Positions 2,615-33,769 are shown, numbered from the stretch's first letter. The stretch: DNA of 64,000 nucleotides from Escherichia coli (GCF_016903815.1 NZ_CP069973.1), one strand, 5' to 3'. Numbers and translations are program-made. The notes: generated from the letters alone by a model not told the origin.

Positions 2615-3189
2615 AATAGAAACTCATTCGAAAAGGGAATGATGCAATGATAATTGCCACAACCTATTTTTACCATCTATAGATGGTTTTATTTACATAT
2701 TATTGGTGAATGCAAGACGTTATTTTTACCAGCCATAAACTTCTTGATTACATAGTATTACGAAAGGATTTTACTGAGAACCAGAAGTAATATTCCTTAT
2801 CATCAAAATTCATCATCTTTGCCAAAGAAAAATGTTCAGAAAATAATCCATGGGAAATTGCCCGGCGCGCTTACTATTTTTATGGATTGTTAGTCTTTGC
2901 ATGAGCAAGCGGACTGATACATTTCTCTTTGTTCTCATTCAGAAAATCTCATCAGTCGGCGTTCAGACCGGTGTTGTGCTTTATGGATGCGTTACGCTCC
3001 TGATGACGTCATTTGACATTCAACAGCATCACGGGGTCGCACGACATTTCACGTCAGTCAGCGCTATAGCTCAGGAACAAATTTTCCCGAATTGGGATAT
3101 ACCCGCAAAATGCTGGTGTTGTGGGGAGAATTTGGTTGAGTTCGGTAGAAATGATTTTTAGGCAGAACGCTTAAATTGTGGCGTCCTGA

Positions 3190-3221
3190 AACGAAAAACG
3201 GACCTCCGTGGAGGTCCGTTT
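3190..3221 (-). terminator. Stem-loop (AAACGGACCTCC / GGAGGTCCGTTT) with T-rich tail on minus strand; likely the tRNA-Phe terminator
   Basis: Perfect 12-bp inverted repeat at 3196..3207 and 3210..3221 read directly from sequence. Confidence 0.5.
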
Positions 3222-3230
3222 ATATGAATT

Positions 3231-3252
3231 TGGTGCCGGACTCGGAATCGAA
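3231..3252 (-). repeat. 22-nt copy of the tRNA-Phe 3' end (island attachment-site direct repeat), not a full tRNA
   Basis: tggtgccggactcggaatcgaa is the reverse complement of the tRNA-Phe 3' end (GGTTCGATTCCGAGTCCGGGCACCA) with one C missing; homology stops after 22 nt. Confidence 0.7.
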
Positions 3253-13986: not shown

Positions 13987-14655
13987 ATTTCAGACCTTGA
14001 AGTATGTAGATAATCAGCACAATTACTAATGTGATAAATATCAGAAGATAATTTACAGGTAAACCGGAAAATACATCTGAAGAATAAAGGCCTCAGCTTA
14101 ACGTTTCAGCCAGTTTGTGAGCTGATTGAGGTACGGCGATGACATTAACGGGAATTACTCCCCTATAGCTCTGAGCTTATTTTTCACCCTGGCAACATAT
14201 GGTGGCTACTGCGCATGGTTTTGGAGTAGATATCTTACTACTCGTAGAATTGTGCTTACTGGTCAGGCCAGCGCACAGGCATTCCGTGCAATCAATAGAA
14301 CACTGGTTTTTTAGTCTTCCGTTACCCATCAGGATGTTAGTGCAGATTCCGGTGTATTCGATCAGTTGTTCGGCGAATCAGCGATCGATCACGATGCGAT
14401 TTCGTATGTTAGGGATGCTGGTATGATTACTCGCTGAAAAATAATGTGAAAAGGCAGTTTTTCTTTAGACATTTAGCTCATTCATGCTGTTGTTTTACGT
14501 TTTGCTGTCGTGTGCAGGATTATCTTTTCGTTACGGGACGATTCATTCTGTTTTAATCAGGAGCCATTGGCGTTGCTCAATGGCGGGATGCCGTAAAGTT
14601 TTACCGCAGTGATTAATGATGTGAAGTCAATCCAAATCAACGGAGATCTCTCATC

Positions 14656-15387
14656 ATGAATCAACCAATACACAATGATTACTGGTTATCCCGTTTTGAA
14701 AGTATTCTCAACAGTGCCCTGGTGCAACACCGTGCCGTCTCGTTAATCCGGGTGGATTTACGTTTCCCTGAGTATATGCCTGTCACCATCATGGATCCCG
14801 ATCCGGATTCAGCGGTGATTTCCCGTTTTTTCGCATCCCTGAAAGCCAAAATTCAGGCTTACCAGCGGAAAAAAAGATGGGCCAATCAGCGTGTGCATGC
14901 AACCAGCCTGCGTTATTTCTGGTGCCGGGAGTTCGGCAAGATGTATGGCAGGAAACATTATCACGTGATATTACTGCTCAACAAAGATACCTGGTGCTCG
15001 CTCGGGGATTTCAGCGAACCGTCTTCGCTGGCGACGATGATCCAGGAGGCATGGTGCAGCGCCCTGCATCTTGAGCCCTGGCAAGGCGATGGCCTGGTCC
15101 ATTTTTCCAGGTGGACGCCTTCCCGTAAACCGACATCGTCTGATGCTCGCCCTTCTTCCGATGACACGCCTTTGTCGGGTGGATGTTCTGATACCAGGAA
15201 GGCTTCAGACAAAAAGCCAGGTGAAGCCGCTGTGCTCTGGATCAAGCGTGGTGATGTGGAAGCGCTGCAGAAAGCCCGGAACAGAGCCAGTTATCTCGTG
15301 AAATATGAGACGAAGCAGCATGACGGTTCCGGGCAACGTAATTATGGTTGCAGTCGTGGGCCGGGGCGTCTACTGGATGGCAGGTGA
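14656..15387 (+). CDS. YagK/YfjJ-family protein (Inovirus Gp2-like)
   Basis: N-terminal region resembles YfjJ/YagK of cryptic prophages; from memory. Confidence 0.5.
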   Translation: MNQPIHNDYWLSRFESILNSALVQHRAVSLIRVDLRFPEYMPVTIMDPDPDSAVISRFFASLKAKIQAYQRKKRWANQRVHATSLRYFWCREFGKMYGRKHYHVILLLNKDTWCSLGDFSEPSSLATMIQEAWCSALHLEPWQGDGLVHFSRWTPSRKPTSSDARPSSDDTPLSGGCSDTRKASDKKPGEAAVLWIKRGDVEALQKARNRASYLVKYETKQHDGSGQRNYGCSRGPGRLLDGR

Positions 15388-15907
15388 ACCCGGTAAAACA
15401 GCATCCGGTGCCTGAGCGTATACCACGGTCAGGACGTTGGCTGACGCCCTTAGCTCGTTTTCTGATAATCGCCCTGAAGTCATGAAACGGTATTTTTATC
15501 TGCTTCCATTCTCATGTTCATATTTCCCCTTACACTTTCACTGTCTGTCATTGGAAGTACCGATTTATTTTGGTGCTGCTCACTTACTGCCATTCACGGA
15601 AGAGGATAGTGGTGAACCGTACGATCCTGACTGCTGGCGAGGGAAGGTTCAGAACTGGTATGAGGTTTAGTGCTGGAAGATGACTTTGAATCCCGGACTG
15701 AGCAGTGAGGGGGCAGTGGGAGGATGCTCTGGTGTAACAGGCCTGGATTGCAAAATACAAAACCGGTTGTACACTCGTAACGGGCAAAAGGATACGGGCA
15801 ATAACACGTGGTACCCGGTGAGACAGGATCTTGTATCGCATTACCGGGAATATTCTGACAGGTGAAATGTTCTGATAAGAATCATCCTGAGGGAGGATAC
15901 AACGGAT

Positions 15908-16360
15908 ATGCACGTTATTAACAGCGGCATTCGTGATGTGAAATTTGGTGAAAATGTGAAAGTCGTCATGCCAGTAAACCTCTATGAATGTGAACTGGGG
16001 GATGATGTTTTTATCGGTCCCTTTGTGGAAATACAGAAGGGATGCATCATTGGCAAGCGGAGCCGAATTCAGTCCCACAGTTTCATCTGTGAGAACGTCA
16101 TTTTAGGTGATGGCTGTTTCATCGGTCATGGCGTAACTTTTGCTAATGATCTTTTTAAGTGTGGTGGTCCCGATGCCTCTGCAGAAAGCTGGATACGTAT
16201 CGTATTAGGTAACACTGTAACAGTGGGTAGCGGAGCGACTATTTTAACAACAGAAATTTGCAGTGGAGCAGTGATTGGGGCTGGTAGTGTGGTTACAAAG
16301 CCCGTGCTGGTAAAAGGCGTGTATGCCGGTAATCCAGCCAGACTTTTGAGAACGCTTTAA
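15908..16360 (+). CDS. Hexapeptide-repeat (left-handed beta-helix) acyl/acetyltransferase
   Basis: Repeated [LIV]G-x4 hexapeptide pattern (VILGDGCFIGHGVTF, IVLGNTVTVGSGATI). Confidence 0.75.
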   Translation: MHVINSGIRDVKFGENVKVVMPVNLYECELGDDVFIGPFVEIQKGCIIGKRSRIQSHSFICENVILGDGCFIGHGVTFANDLFKCGGPDASAESWIRIVLGNTVTVGSGATILTTEICSGAVIGAGSVVTKPVLVKGVYAGNPARLLRTL

Positions 16361-16895
16361 TTATTATATTTACAAATCGTAAGCCAGAATTGACTCCAGA
16401 CCATTATGTGTCTTATTCACCATGAGTGAAATGCGGGATGAGCCTGCAAGTTAAGAGGATATCGGAAACCAGCAACCAGGGCAGTGAGAGCGCTGTCGGG
16501 GTCATTGATATCTCCGAAGGGAAGCCCTGGTATAAGGTGTTTGCATAAAATTATTAAACAGGCTCATTTTTAGCGATCCTCATGAAATTCATCGTAACAT
16601 CCTGAATATCTTATGGTGTTTCCTGTCATCTCCGGTATTTATTCCGTTCATGCAAATAACCTGATGAAACAGGGCAACGCCATAAAACCGGATAAGGACA
16701 ACATGGATTAACGATAAAAATTGTGATCCTGTTTTCATTTTTCACTTTTTGATTCTGGACTGGTATTTACATTTCTAAAAACAGGCATAAAGTGAACACA
16801 TGTTTGATTTTGAATATATGTTCAACTCTATCTGCGTGGTCGAATAGAAATACAGATTTATTATTTTTGTGTTTTTAAATGTCAGGAGATGTGCC

Positions 16896-17831
16896 ATGTG
16901 TGATAAGGAATACATCATCACAATTGGCTCTGCCAATATAGATATAGCCGGATATTCGTATGCCTCCTTAAATTATGCTGATTCTAACCCGGGGAAGATT
17001 AAATTCACGCCCGGAGGTGTGGGGCGTAATATTGCACATAATCTTGCTCTGCTGGGTAAAAACTCATGGCTGATGTCAGCTGTGGGAGATGATTTCTACG
17101 GGCAATCATTATTAGCACAAACGACTCAGTCCGGCGTTAATGTTGATAAATGTCTGATTGTTAATGGAGAAAATACCTCAAGTTATTTATCACTTCTCGA
17201 TAAAACCGGTGAAATGTTGGTGGCAATAAATGACATGACGATTAGTGAACATATTTCAGCTGAGTTTTTATCACAGCATATTGATTTTATTCAGGGAGCG
17301 AAGGTTATTGTTGCAGACTGTAATATCAGTGAGTCAACACTTGTCTGGCTACTGAATAATGCAGGTAAGGTTCCGGTATTTGTTGACCCGGTATCTGCAT
17401 GGAAGTGTGTCAAAATTCGTGAACATTTAGCACAAATTCATACTCTCAAGCCCAACCGGCTTGAAGCAGAAACACTCAGTGGTATTTCGCTTTCAGATCG
17501 GAATGATGCTGAAAAAGTGGCGGTATGGTTCCATACACATGGTCTGAATCGCCTTGTGCTCAGCATGGGGGGGGATGGAGTTTATTACAGCGAACTGTAC
17601 GGAGCCAGCGGCTGGTCGCCGCCAGTAAAAACACAGGTGGTGAACGTTACGGGGGCAGGGGATGCCATGATGGCAGGGCTGGCTTCCTGCTGGGTTGATA
17701 ATATGCCATTTATTGATTCCATTCGATTTGCACAGGGGTGTTCATCAATGGCGCTGGCCAGTGAGTATACCAATAATCCTGAATTATCTGTTGCTAACGT
17801 TAAAAGCTTAGTGGAGAAACAGAATGTCTGA
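16896..17831 (+). CDS. psuK: PfkB-family kinase, pseudouridine kinase-like (YeiC/PsuK paralog)
   Basis: GGVGRNIAHNLALLG and GAGDAMMAG motifs; ATG at 16896 preceded by AGGAGA. Confidence 0.75.
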   Translation: MCDKEYIITIGSANIDIAGYSYASLNYADSNPGKIKFTPGGVGRNIAHNLALLGKNSWLMSAVGDDFYGQSLLAQTTQSGVNVDKCLIVNGENTSSYLSLLDKTGEMLVAINDMTISEHISAEFLSQHIDFIQGAKVIVADCNISESTLVWLLNNAGKVPVFVDPVSAWKCVKIREHLAQIHTLKPNRLEAETLSGISLSDRNDAEKVAVWFHTHGLNRLVLSMGGDGVYYSELYGASGWSPPVKTQVVNVTGAGDAMMAGLASCWVDNMPFIDSIRFAQGCSSMALASEYTNNPELSVANVKSLVEKQNV

Positions 17832-18759
17832 AATAACCATTTCTTCTGAATTACTGCAAATTTCACCGGAAGTACAGGATGCCATTAACAGTAAAAAACC
17901 TGTTGTTGCTCTCGAGTCAACAATTATCTCACATGGTATGCCTTTTCCTCAGAATGCTCAGACGGCTATTGAAGTCGAAGAAACTATACGTAAACACGGA
18001 GCAGTACCAGCCACCATTGCCGTTATTGGCGGTGTAATGAAAGTCGGGTTAAGTAAAGATGAGATTGAATTACTGGGTCGCGAAGGACATAACGTTACCA
18101 AAGTCAGTCGCCGGGATTTACCTTTCGTTATTGCTGAAGGAAAACATGGTGCAACAACGGTAGCTTCAACCATGATTATTGCTGCTCTTGCCGGAATTAA
18201 AGTTTTTGCCACAGGAGGAATTGGCGGCGTTCATCGCGGTGCAGAACACACTTTTGATATTTCAGCCGACCTACAGGAACTGGCACATACTAATGTCACC
18301 GTGGTTTGTGCAGGCGCGAAATCCATTCTCGATTTAGGGTTAACCACGGAATATTTAGAAACATTTGGTGTACCTTTAATTGGCTATCAGACAAGATCAT
18401 TGCCGGCATTTTTTTGCCGCACCAGTCCGTTTGAGGTCAGTATACGTCTGGACAGTGCAAAAGAGATTGCCCGCGCGATGGCAGTGAAATGGCAAACCGG
18501 CCTGAACGGTGGTCTGGTTGTTGCCAATCCGATTCCGGAAGCTTACGCCATGGCGGAAGAGAAAATTAATGCAGCAATTGACCAGGCCGTAAAAGAAGCG
18601 GAAGTGCAGGGCATTACCGGTAAAGAAAGCACACCGTTCCTGCTGGCACGGGTGGCAGAATTAACCGGTGGTGACAGTCTGAAATCAAATATTCAGCTGG
18701 TATTCAACAACGCAGTTCTGGCCTGTGAGATAGCAAAAGAATATCAACAAATTGTCTGA
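17824..18759 (+). CDS. psuG: Pseudouridine-5'-phosphate glycosidase-like (YeiN/PsuG paralog)
   Basis: 311 aa resembling YeiN; overlaps psuK stop by 8 bp. Confidence 0.75.
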   Translation: MSEITISSELLQISPEVQDAINSKKPVVALESTIISHGMPFPQNAQTAIEVEETIRKHGAVPATIAVIGGVMKVGLSKDEIELLGREGHNVTKVSRRDLPFVIAEGKHGATTVASTMIIAALAGIKVFATGGIGGVHRGAEHTFDISADLQELAHTNVTVVCAGAKSILDLGLTTEYLETFGVPLIGYQTRSLPAFFCRTSPFEVSIRLDSAKEIARAMAVKWQTGLNGGLVVANPIPEAYAMAEEKINAAIDQAVKEAEVQGITGKESTPFLLARVAELTGGDSLKSNIQLVFNNAVLACEIAKEYQQIV

Positions 18760-18842
18760 TATAAATGAACGGGCAGTGTGAGGTCGCCCGAAATTACCTG
18801 AACCAGATTCCGTGTCTGGTTCAGGTATAAGGGGAGAGCATT

Positions 18843-20093
18843 ATGGACATCATGAGAAGTATAGTGGGAATGGCAGTATTGCTGATAATTGCATTTCTAC
18901 TATCAGTGAATAAAAAACGTATCAGTTTACGTACCACAGGAGCTGCACTGGTTCTTCAAATCGCGATTGGTGGGATCATGCTCTATTTCCCCCCGGGGAA
19001 ATGGCTGGTTGAACAGGCTGCACTGGGCGTACATAAAATTATGTCTTACAGTGATGCGGGCAGTGCCTTTATTTTTGGCTCTCTGGTAGGGGACAAAATG
19101 GACGTACTGTTCGATGGGGCGGGTTTTATCTTCGCCTTCCGTGTACTTCCTGCCATCATTTTTGTTACAGCGCTTATCAGTCTGCTGTACTACATCAGAG
19201 TGATGGGGGGGCTTATCCGTATTCTGGGGGGGATTTTTCAGAAAGCTCTGAACATAAGTAAAGTTGAGTCATTTGTGGCAGTAACGACAATTTTCCTGGG
19301 GCAAAACGAGATCCCGGCAATTGTAAAACCGTTTATTAATCGTCTGAATCGTAATGAATTATTTACTGTCATCTGCAGTGGGATGGCTTCGATTGCCGGT
19401 TCAATGATGATCGGCTATGCCGGGATGGGGGTTCCGATTGACTATTTGCTGGCGGCGTCGTTGATGGCGATCCCGGGGGGGATCCTTTTTGCCCGTATTC
19501 TGAGTCCGGCCACAGAAGAATCAAAAGTCACTTTTGAAAATCTTTCTTTCACTGATACTCCTCCCAAAAGTGTTATTGAAGCAGTGGCCAGCGGGGCGAT
19601 GACCGGGTTGAAAATCGCTGTCGGAGTTGCAACGGTAGTGATGACCTTTGTTGCTATTATTGCTCTGATTAACGGTATAATCGGTGGTATCGGAGGCTGG
19701 TTTGGTTATGGTAATATTACCCTTGAGGGCATTTTCGGCTGGATTTTGGCTCCCCTTGCGTGGATCATGGGCGTTGACTGGGCGGATGCTTCACTGGCAG
19801 GAAGTCTGATTGGTCAGAAGCTGGCAATTAACGAATTTGTTGCTTATCTCAATCTTTCACCCTATTTACAGCCAGGCAGTACGCTTGATGTGAAAACCAC
19901 CGCAATTATTTCTTTTGCACTGTGTGGTTTTGCCAACTTTGGCTCCATTGGTGTGGTGGTGGGTGCCTTTTCAGCCATATCACCTCAGCGTGCACCTGAA
20001 ATTGCACAACTGGGCATGCGTGCACTGGCGGCGGCCACCCTGTCAAACCTGATGAGTGCGACTATCGCTGGTTTTTTCATTGGGCTGGCATAA
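18843..20093 (+). CDS. psuT: Concentrative nucleoside transporter (NupC family, PsuT-like)
   Basis: 416-aa polytopic membrane protein with NupC-like sequence. Confidence 0.75.
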   Translation: MDIMRSIVGMAVLLIIAFLLSVNKKRISLRTTGAALVLQIAIGGIMLYFPPGKWLVEQAALGVHKIMSYSDAGSAFIFGSLVGDKMDVLFDGAGFIFAFRVLPAIIFVTALISLLYYIRVMGGLIRILGGIFQKALNISKVESFVAVTTIFLGQNEIPAIVKPFINRLNRNELFTVICSGMASIAGSMMIGYAGMGVPIDYLLAASLMAIPGGILFARILSPATEESKVTFENLSFTDTPPKSVIEAVASGAMTGLKIAVGVATVVMTFVAIIALINGIIGGIGGWFGYGNITLEGIFGWILAPLAWIMGVDWADASLAGSLIGQKLAINEFVAYLNLSPYLQPGSTLDVKTTAIISFALCGFANFGSIGVVVGAFSAISPQRAPEIAQLGMRALAAATLSNLMSATIAGFFIGLA

Positions 20094-20102
20094 AAAATAC
20101 AA

Positions 20103-20130
20103 TCCCGGGTGTTACCCCCGGGATGTTTTT
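20103..20130. terminator. Bidirectional rho-independent terminator between convergent psuT and the regulator-kinase gene
   Basis: TCCCGGG-tgttacc-CCCGGGA hairpin flanked by an A-run and a T-run. Confidence 0.6.
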
Positions 20131-21206
20131 AACAGATATTGCGCGTTATTAACGGAAAGTGTTGGGTTATTGATGCTGGTGCTGGCACGTGACAGTGCTG
20201 CACATGCCATCGCAAAGTGAGCACTTTCCTGGAAACTACTTCCTTCCAGAAAACTGTAAAGCAGACCTGCCATAAAGCCATCATCTGCACCAAAGCTGTC
20301 CACAACGGCATGAACGGGCGGTGTGAGCAGAAATTGTTCTCCCTCTCTTTGGCTACAGAAAACGGATTCATCTCCCATCCAGACAAAAATCTGTTGCACA
20401 CCCTGCTGATGTAGTGCGTTCACTGCGGTGAGTAGATCGGTCTCATTGTTGACAGGGGAACCCCATAATATCTCCAGTTCTTTTTGTGTGGGTTTCAGGG
20501 TATGGATATGCGGAAGCCAGTTTTTTACATTAACAGCCTTAAATTTCGACACTGTATCAATAAAAACGGGAATGCCGTCAGCGACCGTAAAGATCCATTC
20601 AAGGGCGGCAGGTGTCAGATTACAGTCAGCCAGCACCACGCCAGCGTGACGGATTAACATACGTGAGGCGTCCAGCAACTGCGGCGTCAGTTGTTGCAGA
20701 ATATGGGTATCATTAATCGCCATCACTGTTTCTGCCTGTAGGTCGGCGATGGAGACATAAGTTGAAGTATTTTGTCCGTTCAGTCGAATACAATTGGTGA
20801 CATTAACGCCGGCCAGGCGGGTCTGCTCCAGTAATGTTTCGCCATAAAAATCATTGCCTACAGCAGATATCAGATGCACATTGCGGCCCAGAAGGGCGAG
20901 ATTATGGGCGATGTTGCGTCCGACACCTCCGGCAGAGCAGTAAATACTGCCCGGACTGGAGGATTTCTGTGGATAATGGATATCCGCCACCCCACGGATA
21001 TCCATGTTAATCGCCCCAAGAACAACACAGTATTCCTGTTCTGTCAGGATGTAGCCTTTCCCTTTAATCGCACCTTTGCGCATCAGATCCATAATGTGTG
21101 CAGCAACACGCGACCGACTGATTTGTAAAATCTCAGCAATTTCATTCTGCTGGATCAGTGGGTTGTGACGCAGGATCCTGAGTATCTCTTTTTCTCTGTT
21201 GTCCAT
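20112..21206 (-). CDS. HTH-domain fused to PfkB-family kinase (YeiI-like)
   Basis: N-terminal winged-helix (ILRILRHNPLIQQNEIAEILQISRSRV) plus GGVGRNIAHNLALLG kinase motif. Confidence 0.75.
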   Translation of the reverse strand: MDNREKEILRILRHNPLIQQNEIAEILQISRSRVAAHIMDLMRKGAIKGKGYILTEQEYCVVLGAINMDIRGVADIHYPQKSSSPGSIYCSAGGVGRNIAHNLALLGRNVHLISAVGNDFYGETLLEQTRLAGVNVTNCIRLNGQNTSTYVSIADLQAETVMAINDTHILQQLTPQLLDASRMLIRHAGVVLADCNLTPAALEWIFTVADGIPVFIDTVSKFKAVNVKNWLPHIHTLKPTQKELEILWGSPVNNETDLLTAVNALHQQGVQQIFVWMGDESVFCSQREGEQFLLTPPVHAVVDSFGADDGFMAGLLYSFLEGSSFQESAHFAMACAALSRASTSINNPTLSVNNAQYLLKTSRG

Positions 21207-21643
21207 GATTATGCAACTGCCTGTTCGGTTTTTCGTCAGCGATCATCAAAGTAAATAGCTTCGTTTTTCCCGGTGAACGTGAAGCTAGGGGAGATTATAC
21301 TTCCAGATGTTCATTCAGGGCAGAAGAATAATACATCAGTTAATTTTCTGTTAGTACTTTGTAGTCGAATGTTTGGGGAGTGTGTCTGAATGACAGCCAG
21401 ATGGAATGACTTTTTGTAGCCAGGTCATGACTACGACTCATACGCTATTCTTAATTCTTATTTCTTTCCATTATACGCAAGTATTTTTAATTTAGGTTTA
21501 TTACTATAATTATATTCACTTTGTCTTTATTCACTCTGTTTTTACTTACTCTCTATCTTTACTCATTCCATTACTCTGACCCTCACCCGATTATACTTAC
21601 TCCCTTCCTTGTCTAATCTTCATTGCCACCATTATCATGGTAT

Positions 21644-21697
21644 CCACCTTCTCCACCTTCTCCACCTTCTCCACCTTCTCCACCTTCTCCACCTTCT
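21644..21697. repeat. Tandem repeat, 9-bp unit CCACCTTCT x 6
   Basis: Counted directly in sequence; lies in a 1.3-kb AT-rich region without a convincing ORF. Confidence 0.9.
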
Positions 21698-22533
21698 CCT
21701 TCATTCAATCATAACTACTGTAATTCATACGATACTCAGATAAGTTATTTTACTACGTTGTTGCTAATATCTACCTGTTATCAGTCTTCACTGAAACAGC
21801 AATTGATTTTAGTCATTATCCATAATGAACTGTATTGACTTAACGATGATTGTTGTTGACCTGAAGTGTTTTAACTATTCTGGTAAATATCAATACTTCT
21901 GTCATCACTGATTAACTGGATGTTTACTCTTTGATAAGGTATCCATGATTTCGTCATGTTTAACAGCGCAGGATAAACAATGAAATTAACAGAGTGAATT
22001 CCTGATTATATTTGTTCGTTTCTGATTATCTTGTATGTTAAACAAAATGAAAATTATCCATCCATGGTATATTTTATTCTGGTGCCGTGTACCCGTTAAC
22101 GCTCATGTTTTGAAGTGAGTTGTTTTTAACAGATTAAATGAGAGTGTATGATTTTATCAGGTTACAGATATGTGTTGGCCTTGTACACGTTTTTGCAGAC
22201 TCACTGAGAGCAAGTTTGTAGTTTATGATGTGATTGGTCGCAATATGTTTCTTAATCTCCAGGTAGTGGGGTTTTAGCTCGTATTTTACAGTATTTCGTG
22301 ATGTTTTATTGAGTCTGTATTTTCTTTACTCCTCGTTTATCTCATCTCTTTAGCTAATACCATCAGATAATCCATTTCTTTCTGCATAATGCTGCGTATC
22401 GTTAATAACCCGTCGTATCCATTCTGCTACAGCATGCCTGATAAATACCATCTGTAAGTTATTACCGTTATGAGCGAAAGCATTAATTCGTTCACAGAGC
22501 TTAAAACATCATTAACTTTCAGGAGTCATCAAC

Positions 22534-23100
22534 ATGCCTAAATCTTACACACCAAACTGGTTTTTTACCGCTTTACTTGACAATCACATCAATCAAATGA
22601 TGGCACGCTATTCCTGCCTGCGGGCCTTACGGATGGATTTCTTCTACAGGAAAGATACGCCCGATTTCTTACAACCTGATCATCGCTGGCTTGAATTGCA
22701 GTTGCGTATGCTGCTGGAGCAGGTGGAACAATTTGAAAATATCGTTGGTTTCTTCTGGGTGATTGAATGGACGGCTGATCATGGTTTTCATGCGCATGCG
22801 GTTTTGTGGATCGATCGTCAGAGGGTTAAAAAAATATATCCCTTTGCGGAGCGGATTACGGAATGCTGGCGGTCTATTACACATAACAGCGGTTCGGCAC
22901 ACCGCTGTACATATCAGCCGCATTATACATACAACATCAACATTCCTGTGCGCCACAACGATCCTGAAAGCATCGATAATATTCGCGGTGCCCTGCATTA
23001 TCTGGCAAAAGAAGAGCAAAAAGACGGGCTGTGTGCCTATGGCTGCAATGAAGTTCCTGAACGTCCTGCTGCAGGGCGTCCTCGTAACCCTCACTTCTGA
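22534..23100 (+). CDS. YagK/YfjJ-family protein (Inovirus Gp2-like)
   Basis: 188-aa ORF with family resemblance; from memory. Confidence 0.5.
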   Translation: MPKSYTPNWFFTALLDNHINQMMARYSCLRALRMDFFYRKDTPDFLQPDHRWLELQLRMLLEQVEQFENIVGFFWVIEWTADHGFHAHAVLWIDRQRVKKIYPFAERITECWRSITHNSGSAHRCTYQPHYTYNINIPVRHNDPESIDNIRGALHYLAKEEQKDGLCAYGCNEVPERPAAGRPRNPHF

Positions 23101-23327
23101 AGCTTAAATCCTGAGCTTCCTGTCCTGGAAACATTCCGTCGGTAAAACCTTACCACCTTGCTTAATGATGTGAACTGAAGTCAACGGAGATCATTCACTC
23201 TTAACCACATCCGGTGTTCTGTCCCTTGTCGGTGACCTGATCTTCCCGTTCTGCTTCGGTTCTTCACTTATTCCATCAACCCCATCCGCAAGCTATAACA
23301 CGTCAGCTCATTCACGGGCAGGACGCA

Positions 23328-23933
23328 TTGTGGGCTGCGCATAACGGAGCATATCTTATGAATGCTATCCCTTATTTCGACTATAGCCTAGCACCCTTCT
23401 GGCCGTCTTATCAGAACAAAATCATCGGTGTCCTTGAGCGTGCGCTGCGTGAGCAGTCCGGCTCCCGGATACGACGGATCCTGCTTCGTCTGCCATGTGA
23501 ATATGACCGTACCTTCAGCAGCAGAAAGATCTGGTTCGGTATGGACTTTATCGAAACCGTCAGTGCGCTGATGAATGCAACACCTGGACGAGATCTCTGC
23601 TGGCTCCTGACCCGTCATCCTGAAAAGCCGGAATACCACGTGGTGCTGTGTGTCAGACAGGAGTATTTCGACGGCCCTGAACTGGACCGGCTGATTCTGG
23701 ATGCCTGGAGCAACGTACTGGGCTTCGCGTCACCGGGTGAAGCAAAGCAGTATCAGAAGCAGATCACCCGGGATGTGGTGCTGGACAGTCGTTCACCGGA
23801 CTGTGAAAACATCCTCAAAGAGTTGATATGGGCGTTCAGTGATTTCGCCCGCGATCGTCGTGGTGTGTGCGATCCGGAAGCCCGTTGCCTCGCCGGTAAT
23901 CCCGGCTATCCCGGATCTGCAGGACCGTTCTGA
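23328..23933 (+). CDS. Hypothetical protein, possibly a second YagK/YfjJ-like paralog; start may be the Met at 23358
   Basis: ORF adjacent to the YagK-like gene and AlpA. Confidence 0.45.
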   Translation: MWAAHNGAYLMNAIPYFDYSLAPFWPSYQNKIIGVLERALREQSGSRIRRILLRLPCEYDRTFSSRKIWFGMDFIETVSALMNATPGRDLCWLLTRHPEKPEYHVVLCVRQEYFDGPELDRLILDAWSNVLGFASPGEAKQYQKQITRDVVLDSRSPDCENILKELIWAFSDFARDRRGVCDPEARCLAGNPGYPGSAGPF

Positions 23934-24001
23934 AAGCTCGGTTCAGCATCTTTCCCTGCATTCGCACAAACTTCATAAATCTCACAAAGGACATTCTGAC
24001 C

Positions 24002-24891: not shown

Positions 24892-24939
24892 GTTTTAAAA
24901 CGCCCCCTGCCGTATCAGAACTGGGGAATGCTACAGGGT

Positions 24940-26048
24940 TTGACCTGTTCCTCGAGGATCGTAGCGGAGCTGGCCATGAAAAAATGATCCAGGCCCGAAA
25001 TCAGCTTCTTGCTGAAGCGGCGAAAAGTCCAGCGTTAAACATGGTTCGTCCTAACGGCATGAACGATGAGCCTCAGTTCCAGATTCTGATTGATGACGAG
25101 AAAGTTCAGGCGCTTAAACTGAGCATGAGCGACGTCGACAACATAATGTCAGCAGCCTGGGGTTCGATGTATGTAAATGATTTTAACGATCGTGGACGGG
25201 TGAAAAAAGTCTATATTTAGGGCGAACCCGGCTCACGTATATCACCGCAGGATTTTGATAAATGGTATGTCCGTAACAGTGATGGCGACATGGTTTCCTT
25301 TGCCTCTTTTGCAACAGGCAAATGGATTTATGGCTCACCAAAACTGGAGCAATATAATGGTATCTCTGCTGTCGAAATCCTGGGGGAACCGGCACCAGGA
25401 TACAGTTCCGGGGATGCAATGAAAGCAATTGAGGATATTGCGGCAAGACTTCCCGAAGGTTTCCATATTTCCTGGACAGGTTTGTCTTTTGAGGAACGAC
25501 TTTCAGGTTCTCAGGCTCCTGCACTATATGCACTTTCACTGTTGATCGTCTTTCTGTGTCTGGCTGCACTGTATGAAAGCTGGAGCATTCCTTTCTCGGT
25601 CATGCTGGTTGTTCCGCTTGGTGTCCTGAGGGCTGTCTGTGCTACTTTGTTGCGCGGCCTTGGTAACGATGTCTTTTTCCAGGTCGGTTTATTAACAACA
25701 ATAGGGCTGTCTGCGAAAAATGCCATACTTATCGTGGAGTTTGCTCGTGAATTGCATGAGAAAGAAGGACTAAGCATTAAAGAGGCTGCTGTTGAAGCGG
25801 CGAGAGTGAGGTTAAGACCGATAATTATGACTTCGCTGGCATTTGTAATGGGGGTTATCCCACTGGCTGTCTCGACTGGAGCAAGTTCCGGAAGTAAACA
25901 TGCCATCGGTACTGGTGTGGTTGGAGGGATGATCACTGCTACGATACTGGCAATCTTTTATATTCCTCTCTTCTATATGTTAATTGCCGGGTTCTTCAGC
26001 CGCAGAAATAAGAAATCATCGGATAAGACTGAAGCTGAGCAATCATAA
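24940..26048 (+). pseudogene. RND efflux transporter (AcrB/MdtF family), 3' portion only, with in-frame TAG at 25218..25220
   Basis: Translation aligns to the C-terminal third of AcrB-like pumps in one frame across the stop; 5' end removed at the IS2 fragment. Confidence 0.8.
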
Positions 26049-26147
26049 GCATGAGTAAATATTCAGGTGCAGTAAACAACATACTGCGCCTGAGTAAATG
26101 GCTGTTGGGTTGGTACTAAATGCCCCAGAGATATTTCCTGAAATAAG

Positions 26148-26819
26148 ATGTCAATGGAGATTTCAACAGTGGTGCGGCACACAAAATTTGCAGCGGAAGA
26201 AACCCGCAAACAAATCCTGGATGCGGCAGAGTTCTGCTTTTGTGAGACGGGCTTTTCGAAGACGACACTGGAGATGATTGCGGTGCGCGCAGGTTGTACT
26301 CGGGGGGCCATATACTGGTATTTCAACGAAAAAAAAGATCTTCTGCGACAAGTCATCGAGCGGGTACCACTATCATTATTTGATGAGCTTACAGCCATCA
26401 AAAATGGGAGAGTTTCTGAACCGGTTAAAGCGATGTATCGTTGCTTATCACGTAGCCTGATTAAATTACAATATAATGTACACTTACGGAATGTAATTTA
26501 TATTGTGTTTTTTTGTGAAGAATGTCCGGATGATATAAGAATAAATTTCTTACAAAAAATGGTGGATGTCAATAATTTTGTGAAATTACTATGTTATATT
26601 TTCGAAAAAGGTAAGTTATATAGAGAAATATGTTCGGAAATTCGTAGTGAGGCTCTGGCGTTCCTGCTTTTTTCTTTGTTTACGGGGGTGGTGCGAAGTT
26701 GCATTCTGCAACCTGATAATAAATCCCTTTTCAGAGAGGGTTGCATAGTACTGGAGTTGACCCAATCAACCTTCACAGGCATCGATAAAAATGAACGCTA
26801 CTATAAAAAACAGCGCTGA
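26148..26819 (+). CDS. TetR-family transcriptional regulator
   Basis: N-terminal TetR HTH (RKQILDAAEFCFCETGFSKTTLEMIAVRAGCTRGAIYWYF). Confidence 0.75.
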   Translation: MSMEISTVVRHTKFAAEETRKQILDAAEFCFCETGFSKTTLEMIAVRAGCTRGAIYWYFNEKKDLLRQVIERVPLSLFDELTAIKNGRVSEPVKAMYRCLSRSLIKLQYNVHLRNVIYIVFFCEECPDDIRINFLQKMVDVNNFVKLLCYIFEKGKLYREICSEIRSEALAFLLFSLFTGVVRSCILQPDNKSLFREGCIVLELTQSTFTGIDKNERYYKKQR

Positions 26820-26937
26820 TATCAATGAGCTTGCTAAATGAATTGATGAAAATCTTGAGGTAGAACTCTCAATAAATATTGAGGCAAAAAAGCTGGATAT
26901 TCAAAATGGTATTTACAGAAATTGTTTAAACATATCA

Positions 26938-31965: not shown

Positions 31966-33769
31966 GAGTAGGAGGCGGGATCACTCCCGCCGTCCTCTCA
32001 CACCACCGTACGTGCGGTTCCGCATACGGCGGTTCATGTTAACTCTGGAACTGCCTCTACTGTTCCAGCAGTGATATCAGACCCTGCCTCCTGAACCATG
32101 CATTCTTTATCGCCTGATTCATATGGCTTGACCCTGAGTTCCACCATGGCCCGTGGTTGTTGTACGCAGAGATCATTGCCCTGTCCTTACTCAGTCCTGC
32201 TCTTTGCAGATTCTTTGCCCGGGTTCGCGGTCTCTTCCACTGCCGCTACAACAAGCAACGCAGTTTCCGTTTGATCCAGCCATCCAGCTCCTCCAGCACT
32301 CCTCTGACTTCCGTCAGCCTGAAGTAGCTTATCCATCCACACAGCACTGGTGTCAGAGCATTGATTGTCGCTTTCACTGATTTGCTCCGGTTTCCCGTCG
32401 TCAGACTGTGGACTTTCTCCTTCAGCCTGTTCACGCTCGTCAGGGCTATCTTCAGCTTCGCCTGTTTGTGCCATGTCACACTGTACCCGAGGAACTTCCG
32501 ATCCCACGGGCGCGCCACCGCGCTCTTCTTCTCATTCACCTTCAGTTTGTTCTCCACGAACGCCCTGATGTTCTTCAGCAGATGGTCGCCCGCTTTCCGG
32601 CTGCTTACGTAGATGTTGCAGTCGTCTGCGTAGCGGCAGAAGCTGTGTCCACGACGCTCTAGTTCTTTATCCAGTTCATCCAGCAGGATGTTCGACAGTA
32701 ACGGCGACAGTGGGCCGCCCTGCAGCATGCCCGCCTGCCGTTTCTCCCTTTGCCCGTCTTTAACCATTTCCACTTTCAGGTAGCGGCGTATCAGTCACAG
32801 CACCCGCCTGTCCTTTATCGTTCTGGCCAGACGCGTCATCAGGAGTCTGTGATCCACCCGGTCGAAGAACTTCTCCAGATCCATATCCACCACCCACCGT
32901 TTGCCACCCCGTATGTAACGCTGTGCCTGTTGCACCGCCTGCTGGATAAGCCTGTCCACCACCGTCGGGATGCCTGAGGTTCTCACGCCGCCATCCGGCT
33001 TCGGGATATCCATCCGGCGTATTGCCCGCGGCTGGTAGTTTCCGTCAATCAATGCCTGCCTGACGCTGCGCCAGTTCTTCTTCAGCCACGGTTTCAACTC
33101 CGCCACGCTGAGGTTATCCACCCCCGCCGTGCCTTTGTTTTCCAGCACGCGCTGATAAGCCAGCATCAGGTTTTCTCTCGTTATCACCGCTTCCATCGTC
33201 AGCGGCACTTCCGCTTTCGTTTGCCCACCCGCCGCCGTGCTGATTTCAGCGCCATCATGCAGCCCTGACGGATACTGTCCGTCTCCTCTGCCGCTGGTCG
33301 CAGTTGCCTGCGCTTGTGCTTCATTAATCATCATCGGGTTCGGATGTCCTAATCACAGTTAATCATGTTCGGCCCTTCATGCTGCCGGTTTTGCAGCACT
33401 ACTACGGCGTCGGCTGACTTCTGCCGCCCCATCCCGGCGCCTCACGGCGCCGGTAGCACACTGGCAGGGCGACAGATCTCCCGGGGTAATTCACGTGACT
33501 TTCCTGCTTATGCCTGTCGGCTTTACGTCACAGCGTTCCGTGTGAGTATCGGGCTTTGGTGATTTGTGCCACCTTACCCTGCTGCGCCGCCTTAACCGCT
33601 TCCTGTTCGTCAGGCCAGCATTTTGCATCCAGCTTCCTTCAGATTTCACCTCGCGATGAACACCCTTGCCTTCCGCTAACACTTCCCCTCACCGGGTGTG
33701 TGGAGGACTTTCACCTCTTAGTCGTTCTTCTGCCACCACAGTTGAAGAACAGCGCCAGTCACGGCGCAC
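31966..33769 (-). mobile_element. Degenerate group II intron (class C-like) inserted after a terminator hairpin
   Basis: 5' end GTGCGCC immediately after hairpin 33771..33810; domain V-like CCGTATGCGGAACCGCACGTACGG near 32000; disrupted RT ORF inside. Confidence 0.65.
32246..33334 (-). pseudogene. Group II intron reverse transcriptase, disrupted (in-frame stop, internal deletion, C-terminal truncation)
   Basis: Two abutting ORFs (179 and 175 aa) with RT motifs FCRYADDCNIY and GGPLSPLLSNILLDELD. Confidence 0.8.

Follow-up and report, generated by a model that had tools for sequence, protein, structure and literature searches.

An additional pseudouridine utilisation module of probable foreign origin, carried by a tRNA-Phe island of Escherichia coli

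Is a set of pseudouridine utilisation genes found on a genomic island of Escherichia coli the native yei locus of the strain or an additional copy, and do its enzymes act on the same substrate? This question is raised by a stretch of 64,000 nucleotides of E. coli DNA (NZ_CP069973.1), here called the window, whose positions provide the coordinates used below unless another source is named. Between positions 16896 and 21206 the window harbours four genes resembling psuK-psuG-psuT (yeiC-yeiN-yeiM) and yeiI of the K-12 chromosome. The evidence makes it likely, with good confidence, that the region is a horizontally acquired and intact extra module for pseudouridine uptake and catabolism, carried as cargo by an island of the tRNA-Phe genes pheU and pheV, and directed to the same substrate as the native genes. 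In a six-frame list of open reading frames, four long frames were found at these positions, and all four coincide with annotated RefSeq coding sequences of NZ_CP023820.1 (E. coli strain 7/2); the two stretches of the window compared with this genome, 1-6000 and 16800-21300, were 100% identical. The genes and the ribosome-binding site of the first one are as follows:

16884-16888, plus strand: psuK ribosome-binding site, AGGAG
16896-17831, plus strand: psuK-like gene, 311 amino acids, RefSeq pseudouridine kinase
17824-18759, plus strand: psuG-like gene, 311 amino acids, RefSeq pseudouridine-5'-phosphate glycosidase
18843-20093, plus strand: psuT-like gene, 416 amino acids, RefSeq NupC/NupG CNT transporter (concentrative nucleoside transporter)
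20112-21206, minus strand: yeiI-like gene, 364 amino acids, RefSeq sugar kinase, convergent to the psuKGT-like genes

The psuK-like and psuG-like genes overlap by 8 nt, as in K-12. Family models assigned each product with ample scores. The kinase matched NCBIfam equivalog NF007355 with 648.3 bits (cut-off 540), residues 10-319 of the long reading frame corresponding to positions 1-310 of the 313 in the model, and the yeiI product matched equivalog NF007416 with 732 bits (cut-off 561) over positions 1-361 of 362. Pfam revealed two domains in the latter, a winged helix-turn-helix (HTH) domain (HTH_24, residues 1-48) and, fused to it, PfkB (58-348). The transporter reached 507 bits with TIGR00804 nupC (cut-off 442), and comparison with the K-12 proteins placed it nearer to PsuT (90.1% identity) than to NupX (83.7%); it has to be noted that K-12 PsuT itself is annotated in databases merely as a 'putative pseudouridine transporter'. 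No NCBIfam model matched the glycosidase, and its identity was settled by Pfam PF04227 (Indigoidine_A), covered in full length (positions 1-291 of 291, E=2.9e-133), and by the solved structure of E. coli YeiN (PDB 4GIJ, E=6.7e-180). These comparisons confirm, at the level of predicted proteins, a unit made up of a PsuK/YeiC kinase, a PsuG/YeiN glycosidase, a transporter closest to PsuT and an HTH-PfkB protein of the YeiI type.

The setting of the four genes was clearly that of an integrated element. Positions 1-2614 of the window correspond to cadB/cadC. In K-12 the order is cadC-yjdQ'-pheU, with about 620 bp between cadC and pheU and no island, so that K-12 provides the empty site; here about 75 kb separates cadC from the tRNA-Phe gene pheU. 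The left end of the island is marked by a short repeat:

3231-3252, minus strand: distal attachment (att) repeat, a 22-nt partial copy of the tRNA-Phe 3' end with one base deleted; left island end

A segment of 81 bp around this repeat (3173-3252) matched the sequence beside the intact pheU of the same genome at 93.8% (blastn-short against the pheU region). ARAGORN found no tRNA within the window, and the tRNA-Phe of the island was located beyond the window end in the matching genome, where the intact gene and a tyrosine recombinase (integrase) lie just past that end (L004 26696-28234). Insertion at a tRNA 3' end, an adjacent tyrosine recombinase, a distal repeat and an empty reference site together define a tRNA-Phe integrative island. 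Besides the psu cluster, its cargo comprises CP4-type genes (among them CbtA/YeeU, antirestriction and DUF932 genes), insertion sequence (IS) fragments, a grp locus and the remains of an RND efflux gene. The same 38 kb was found at 99.65% identity in strain M217, where it adjoins yghD/gsp, a neighbourhood that we take to be the pheV position; therefore, the island uses both of the identical tRNA-Phe genes, pheU and pheV. The description of the locus in the first-pass annotation as a complete catabolic unit inside a genomic island was thus borne out, the four genes being accompanied by integrase, att repeat and CP4-type cargo.

The same annotation had held the cluster to be probably additional to the chromosomal yei locus, and this also proved correct. 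Strain 7/2 keeps a full native locus, yeiI-nupX-rihB-yeiL-psuT-psuG-psuK, between nfo and fruA. Of 5426 complete E. coli genomes, 5391 had native psuKGT genes and 385 (~7%) had the island module. Shared gene families and similar annotations are what could suggest that the cluster is nothing other than the strain's native yei locus. The probability of this is practically nil, given that the cluster is located in an island with an integrase, between cadC and pheU, that the native locus stands elsewhere on the same chromosome, and that DNA identity between both sets of genes is just 71-77%, a value that does not change when the comparison is made with the carrier strain's own native genes. Comparison with the K-12 yei proteins gave identities of 79% for PsuK, 89.7% for PsuG, 90.1% for PsuT and 75% for YeiI; at 75-90% in protein and 71-77% in DNA, the near-identity that a native locus would display was not observed.

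The native psu/yei locus of E. coli is in itself strongly dimorphic. About 1190 of the 5426 genomes carry an allele that is ~87% identical in DNA to that of K-12 over psuKGT, with protein identities of 88% for PsuK and 86% for YeiI, a divergence far above that typical of core genes (comparison of K-12, L002 3701-11297, with strain U14A, L083 4891-11294; in U14A only a remnant of nupX is left). A derivation of the island copy from this divergent, B2-type native allele was considered and ruled out, DNA identity being 76% to both native allele classes.

To what substrate the enzymes are directed can be judged from residues described in solved structures. Contacts of pseudouridine in E. coli PsuK involve N14, D16, S30', G41, V42, N45, Y97, M114, N143, V166, S167 and K170 (PMC9247573, PMC9061257), and the catalytic and metal-binding residues are D164, N187, E190 and D256 (PMC9247573). 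In an ungapped alignment, all 16 substrate, metal and catalytic residues were identical in the island PsuK. For PsuG, the residues considered were catalytic Glu31 and Lys166, Thr130, Asp145 as ligand of Mn, and Arg97 and Ser147, which bind phosphate (PMC10761123; positions of Asp145, Arg97 and Ser147 correspond to the Arabidopsis numbering minus 19). The island protein conserves E31, K93, R97, T130, D145, S147 and the Schiff-base K166 (7/7). In addition, the ratio of nonsynonymous to synonymous divergence (dN/dS) against Citrobacter was 0.03-0.08, indicating strong purifying selection on the island psu genes; values were like those of ordinary ortholog pairs, the psuT-like gene showing 0.03. 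From the conserved PsuK and PsuG residues and these low ratios we conclude that the island enzymes should act on pseudouridine, with no new specificity.

The first-pass annotation had suggested that the substrate may differ, and a paralog diverged towards another C-nucleoside, or towards a modified nucleoside such as N1-methylpseudouridine, would fit some of the data. The island copy has a longer branch than its sister taxa, the nonsynonymous divergence (dN) to C. amalonaticus is 0.092 for PsuK and 0.106 for YeiI, in comparison with 0.061 and 0.042 between two Citrobacter species, and 68 substitutions separate the island PsuK from that of K-12. However, this degree of divergence is that expected between genera, none of the 16 PsuK and 7 PsuG residues is touched, including the base-reading Ser30, Asn143 and Lys170 (PMC9247573, PMC9061257), and dN/dS values remain in the ordinary ortholog range with scores above the NCBIfam equivalog cut-offs. 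A changed substrate appears quite improbable on these grounds, and the suggestion was not upheld: with all published pseudouridine-binding and catalytic residues of PsuK and PsuG conserved, the genes behave as ordinary orthologs of the chromosomal psu genes.

The origin of the module was also examined. Its bounds were obtained by blastn of window positions 14000-24000 against L005, L007, L016, L018, L023, L035, L058, L084 and L085:

16711-21355: transferable psu module; 16711-21231 homologous to the psu loci on the chromosomes of Citrobacter and relatives, 16716-21355 homologous to a Salmonella enterica accessory copy

Sequence flanking the module on either side is island-specific. The GC content of the module is 45.7%, vs 49.7-51.8% in the native K-12 genes. 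The order of its genes, psuK-psuG-psuT followed by convergent yeiI, is usual for Citrobacter, Klebsiella, Enterobacter, Buttiauxella, Kosakonia and E. albertii, whereas in E. coli and some few further taxa an insertion of nupX-rihB-yeiL separates psuT from yeiI. In a neighbour-joining tree of the four concatenated proteins, the C. amalonaticus/C. sedlakii group was the sister of the island copy, whose own branch was long, and the best identities were to the same group (PsuK 86%, PsuG 94%, transporter 94%, YeiI 82%). This group was nevertheless ruled out as the direct donor by synonymous divergence (dS), which is saturated at 0.9-1.5 with ~81% DNA identity to its loci, and by the GC content at third codon positions, 0.37-0.48 in the island vs 0.48-0.70 in the group. 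A search of one genome per species (100,044 species representatives), together with a search of 5.8 billion proteins, revealed no close donor: outside E. coli, the best matches were at 89% (Salmonella enterica, itself accessory) or 86% (C. amalonaticus). Altogether, the sequence comparisons indicate that the cluster is a foreign copy (xenolog), evidently acquired by horizontal transfer from another enterobacterial lineage.

The module was also found in other accessory contexts. Among the carriers, 376 genomes have an island copy at least 99% identical, and approximately 300 copies are estimated to be base-perfect over 4521 bp, and hence with intact reading frames (estimate from an even sample of 60 rows of 721 matching records, in which rows 2-26 were all at the maximal score). 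Carriers are mostly human isolates, with varied genome sizes and insertion positions. A further 11 E. coli genomes carry an allele at 93.5% identity with the same left boundary (window position ~16716), and a Salmonella enterica genome (GCA_010633625.1) holds the same four-gene module in accessory DNA, with 85% DNA identity over 16716-21355. Since three diverged accessory alleles share the module, it is a recurrent mobile cassette with a lineage of its own.

The Salmonella cassette (L085 7156-14260) adjoins a pyrimidine-nucleoside phosphorylase gene and a gene of the IF-2B family (ribose-phosphate isomerase-like), followed by a ParE/RelB pair, and cassette and neighbours may constitute a larger accessory nucleoside-salvage block.

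Expression of the module was addressed through an alignment of the psuK upstream region from 21 loci and through scans for promoters and terminators, which yielded the following elements:

16722-16737, plus strand: predicted CRP-like site, TGTGATCCTGTTTTCA, with a TGTGA half invariant in the 21 aligned loci
16766-16793, plus strand: psuK promoter of sigma-70 type from a consensus scan, with -35 TTTACA (16766-16771), 16-nt spacer and -10 TAAAGT (16788-16793)
16795-16822, plus strand: putative operator formed by two palindromic AACAnnTGTT boxes, AACACATGTT (16795-16804) and AATATATGTT (16813-16822)
20102-20124, both strands: bidirectional intrinsic terminator, an 8-bp stem with 6 GC pairs and an A-run and a T-run on opposite sides

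On the plus strand ahead of psuK, the scan gave no promoter-like site other than that at 16766-16793, and both of its hexamers fall on blocks conserved across Enterobacteriaceae, TTTAC[T/A]TT and TAnnAT. By our own count, the centre of the CRP-like site in relatives lies ~71 bp before the presumed start of transcription, and binding of CRP at this site is inferred. The operator boxes, whose starts are 18 bp apart, lie directly downstream of the -10 hexamer; the exact AACAnnTGTT motif occurs once in the 64-kb window, at this operator. A box pair with the same spacing was present upstream of psuK in 31 of 36 loci of Enterobacteriaceae type (L005-L037, L057, L058, L060 and L062). Boxes were also looked for upstream of the island yeiI, as a sign of autoregulation, and across the K-12 yei region; in neither was any found besides that of the psuK promoter. 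The terminator, a strong one, lies between the convergent genes and extends into the final codons of yeiI. These results indicate that the predicted psuK promoter architecture is conserved across genera and has been retained in the island.

From orthology and conserved active sites the following pathway can be proposed. The PsuT-like symporter would import pseudouridine, PsuK would phosphorylate its 5'-OH with ATP, and PsuG, a Mn2+-dependent enzyme using the Schiff-base Lys166, would cut the C-C glycosidic bond to yield uracil and ribose-5-phosphate. The genes psuK, psuG and psuT would form one operon, transcribed from the sigma-70 promoter with its upstream CRP-like site and ending at the bidirectional terminator, and the YeiI-like protein may bind the two AACAnnTGTT boxes overlapping the transcription start. 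The net effect expected is a higher or differently regulated scavenging of pseudouridine, and the island copy is predicted to be an ordinary acquisition of gene dosage rather than a new pathway.

Several observations weigh against a module that is functional and kept by selection. The island CRP-like site has two extra bases in comparison with TGTGAttctgtTCATA of its relatives (TGTGA-N6-TCATA), which degrades the second half-site, and both the -10 hexamer and the second box are weaker than those of the relatives; because of these three changes, the island operon may be poorly or differently expressed. The promoter scan gave no consensus promoter upstream of the island yeiI, which also lacks a preceding nfo gene; in chromosomal loci captured with both genes, yeiI starts 4-31 bp after nfo, mostly 6 bp, and the ~125 bp upstream of the island yeiI are common only to the Salmonella cassette. 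In the one copy of the 93.5% allele that was inspected, which adjoins an intact RND efflux system, psuK is frameshifted. In strain 23CRST050 an IS66-family element lies inside the island module (NZ_AP045825.1 5135205-5142436), the match being split in two over 7.2 kb. The frameshifted allele and the IS66 insertion show that the module is dispensable and that selection for it is not universal. Furthermore, as the carriers' copies are nearly clonal, their intact state is poor evidence of selection within E. coli.

The same observations give some room to the explanation that the enzymes work but that the module is a selectively neutral passenger of the pheU/pheV island, redundant with the native locus. 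The presence of other cargo (the grp microcompartment and toxin-antitoxin genes), the near universality of the native locus, the near-clonal copies, for which there has been no time for decay, the disrupted copies and the weaker promoter elements would all agree with such a status. On the other hand, a four-gene module with the same boundaries recurs as accessory DNA in three alleles (that of the window, the 93.5% E. coli allele and the 85% Salmonella allele), suggesting repeated retention; in addition, psu genes are induced in urine (PMC9149909) and the native psuK promoter region is recurrently a target of selection in the gut (PMC9509342). We regard the neutral passenger as unlikely, although with a weight that is not negligible, and favour the acquisition of an extra module that adds to pseudouridine catabolism.

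The remaining gene of the module, yeiI, raised the question of its function, for which no description was found in a search of the literature. Of the 13 PsuK residues in contact with pseudouridine, 12 are kept in the island YeiI; the exception, M114T, was the sole contact-residue change in the YeiI orthologs examined. Two further changes (PsuK numbering), N187T within NXXE, the Mg/phosphate motif, and G255D within GAGD, the motif of the anion hole, were present in all 10 YeiI orthologs aligned (from Escherichia, Citrobacter, Klebsiella, Enterobacter and the island copy), and absent from all PsuK and HTH-PsuK sequences examined. A separate yeiI is missing from Serratia, Yersinia, Hafnia and Photorhabdus, in which the first gene of the operon encodes a fusion of the same winged HTH to PsuK, of 362-372 amino acids and with intact kinase motifs (L039 6842-7945, L043, L041, L038); precomputed Pfam architectures confirmed the combination HTH_24 and PfkB in these four genera and revealed it also in Xenorhabdus and Pasteurellaceae. 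Most of 24 such fusion genes from the four genera are preceded by the box pair with 18-bp spacing, here as AACnnnTGTT located 5-30 nt upstream of the start codon. The HTH-PsuK fusion is probably a bifunctional protein, kinase and autoregulator. Because YeiI has kept the contacts and altered the catalytic motifs, and because HTH-PsuK fusions head the operon behind the same boxes, YeiI is probably the pseudouridine-sensing transcription factor of the pathway, binding the AACAnnTGTT boxes. The recognition helix ISRSRVAAHIMDLMRKG is identical in native and island YeiI, so cross-regulation between both loci is to be expected.

A fuller evolutionary scheme can be put forward tentatively, with a probability that we place just short of even. 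An ancestral bifunctional HTH-pseudouridine kinase, still present in Yersiniaceae, Hafniaceae, Morganellaceae and Pasteurellaceae, would have been duplicated in Enterobacteriaceae, where PsuK would have lost the HTH to become the enzyme, and YeiI, keeping HTH and pseudouridine pocket with altered NXXE/GAGD motifs, would have become a sensor and regulator of psuKGT acting at the boxes where transcription of psuK starts. In that case, the island module would be a self-regulated and self-contained cassette of sensor, transporter and enzymes, moving between Escherichia and Salmonella. Two points argue against this scheme: the link between YeiI and the operator is one of co-occurrence, and two YeiI-bearing loci (Entomohabitans and Affinibrenneria) have no recognisable boxes within 200 bp.

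The YeiI-like protein could also be an active second nucleoside kinase, with another substrate or a moonlighting role, rather than mainly a transcription factor. Catalytic Asp256, Glu190, Asp164 and the GG motif are kept, the NCBI family bears the name 'sugar kinase', and machine-learning tools predict a pseudouridine kinase (PMC12506659). This explanation looks doubtful, however, in view of the N-terminal winged HTH conserved from Pasteurellaceae to Escherichia and of N187T and G255D, found in every YeiI examined and in no PsuK or HTH-PsuK fusion. Moreover, according to a passage of PMC12506659 that cites Preumont 2008, a K-12 psuK mutant cannot use pseudouridine, indicating that YeiI is no substitute for PsuK. 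A role of YeiI as regulator is therefore the one we prefer.

Pseudouridine is a waste nucleoside of RNA that mammals excrete unmetabolised, and it is abundant in urine and gut contents. In this setting, a second psu copy may plausibly confer a gain in dosage or regulation, that is, a modest trait of niche fitness; if the reading of YeiI holds, the module would add scavenging capacity in urine and gut. YeiN was among the five most up-regulated proteins of uropathogenic E. coli UTI89 in urine (PMC9149909), yeiC and yeiN were up-regulated in a bladder-adapted re-isolate (PMC2928814), and in the mouse gut 71% of invader populations had mutations between psuK and fruA (PMC9509342). A second and mobile copy is present in ~7% of complete E. 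coli genomes, most of them from human clinical isolates, and might serve as a marker of a lineage of pheU/pheV islands. The comparison has also provided a testable function and an operator sequence for the uncharacterised YeiI, applicable to the native E. coli locus as well, and, if the proposal is true, YeiI and PsuK would exemplify the splitting of a bifunctional enzyme-regulator into an enzyme and a regulator.

Other features of the island were recorded along with the module. A perfect 9-bp tandem repeat, TCCACCTTC, present in 6.3 copies at 21643-21699, lies ~440 bp upstream of the yeiI-like gene and inside an annotated hypothetical reading frame of 47 amino acids (21597-21740, minus strand); a looser 15-bp repeat was found at 21513-21565. 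Three genes of the YagK/YfjJ ('inovirus Gp2') family are distributed on both sides of the module (14656-15387, 22570-23136 and 23394-23969), and a small acyltransferase gene of hexapeptide type stands near it (15908-16360); none of them is homologous to neighbours of chromosomal psu loci. Downstream of the module, positions 24939-26855 hold an RND efflux permease pseudogene, with an N-terminal truncation and an internal stop, and a TetR regulator gene. The 93.5% variant island (L084 18434-24207) has an intact adaptor, permease and two TetR genes, and therefore the version in the window is a decayed form of a larger block. The same island carries a complete grp locus (grpA-grpS; 27528-47882, minus strand) for a glycyl-radical propanediol-utilisation microcompartment, interrupted by fragments of reverse transcriptase and maturase (32282-33370) that separate grpP from grpO. 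Past the window end, an Orn/Lys/Arg decarboxylase gene lies between two genes for basic amino acid/polyamine antiporters (L004 15820-21337), an extra module of acid-resistance type near the native cad locus.

Routine annotation has named the module correctly in hundreds of genomes, and the operon itself is well characterised. No second, island-borne psu cluster was described in the literature searched, and a 2024 paper on pheV islands makes no mention of nucleoside or psu genes. Among the closest known systems is the K-12 set psuK-psuG-psuT with yeiI, with which the island shares gene families, operon order, psuK/psuG overlap, active sites, promoter architecture and box pair. Unlike the K-12 set, the island copy resides in a pheU/pheV island and not between nfo and fruA, is without the nupX-rihB-yeiL segment, has a yeiI that does not follow nfo, and is lower in GC. 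The chromosomal loci of the C. amalonaticus/C. sedlakii group present the identical compact order and are the nearest among the 100,044 species representatives. The accessory modules of the 93.5% E. coli allele and the 85% Salmonella allele coincide with that of the island in their four genes and left boundary, and in lying away from nfo in accessory DNA rich in IS and toxin-antitoxin genes, but differ in their neighbours, which are RND efflux genes in the E. coli variant and phosphorylase, IF-2B-family and ParE/RelB genes in Salmonella. With regard to regulation, BirA and NadR are repressors that combine enzyme and HTH, and NagC and Mlc are repressors of the ROK family. By analogy, the HTH-PsuK fusions would resemble BirA and NadR in the fusion of a DNA-binding domain to a kinase or ligase fold that recognises the metabolite of the pathway, and YeiI would resemble NagC and Mlc in joining a DNA-binding domain to a kinase fold, with altered catalytic motifs in the case of YeiI. 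The fold of YeiI is a different one (PfkB/ribokinase), and the likeness would be one of function and not of family membership.

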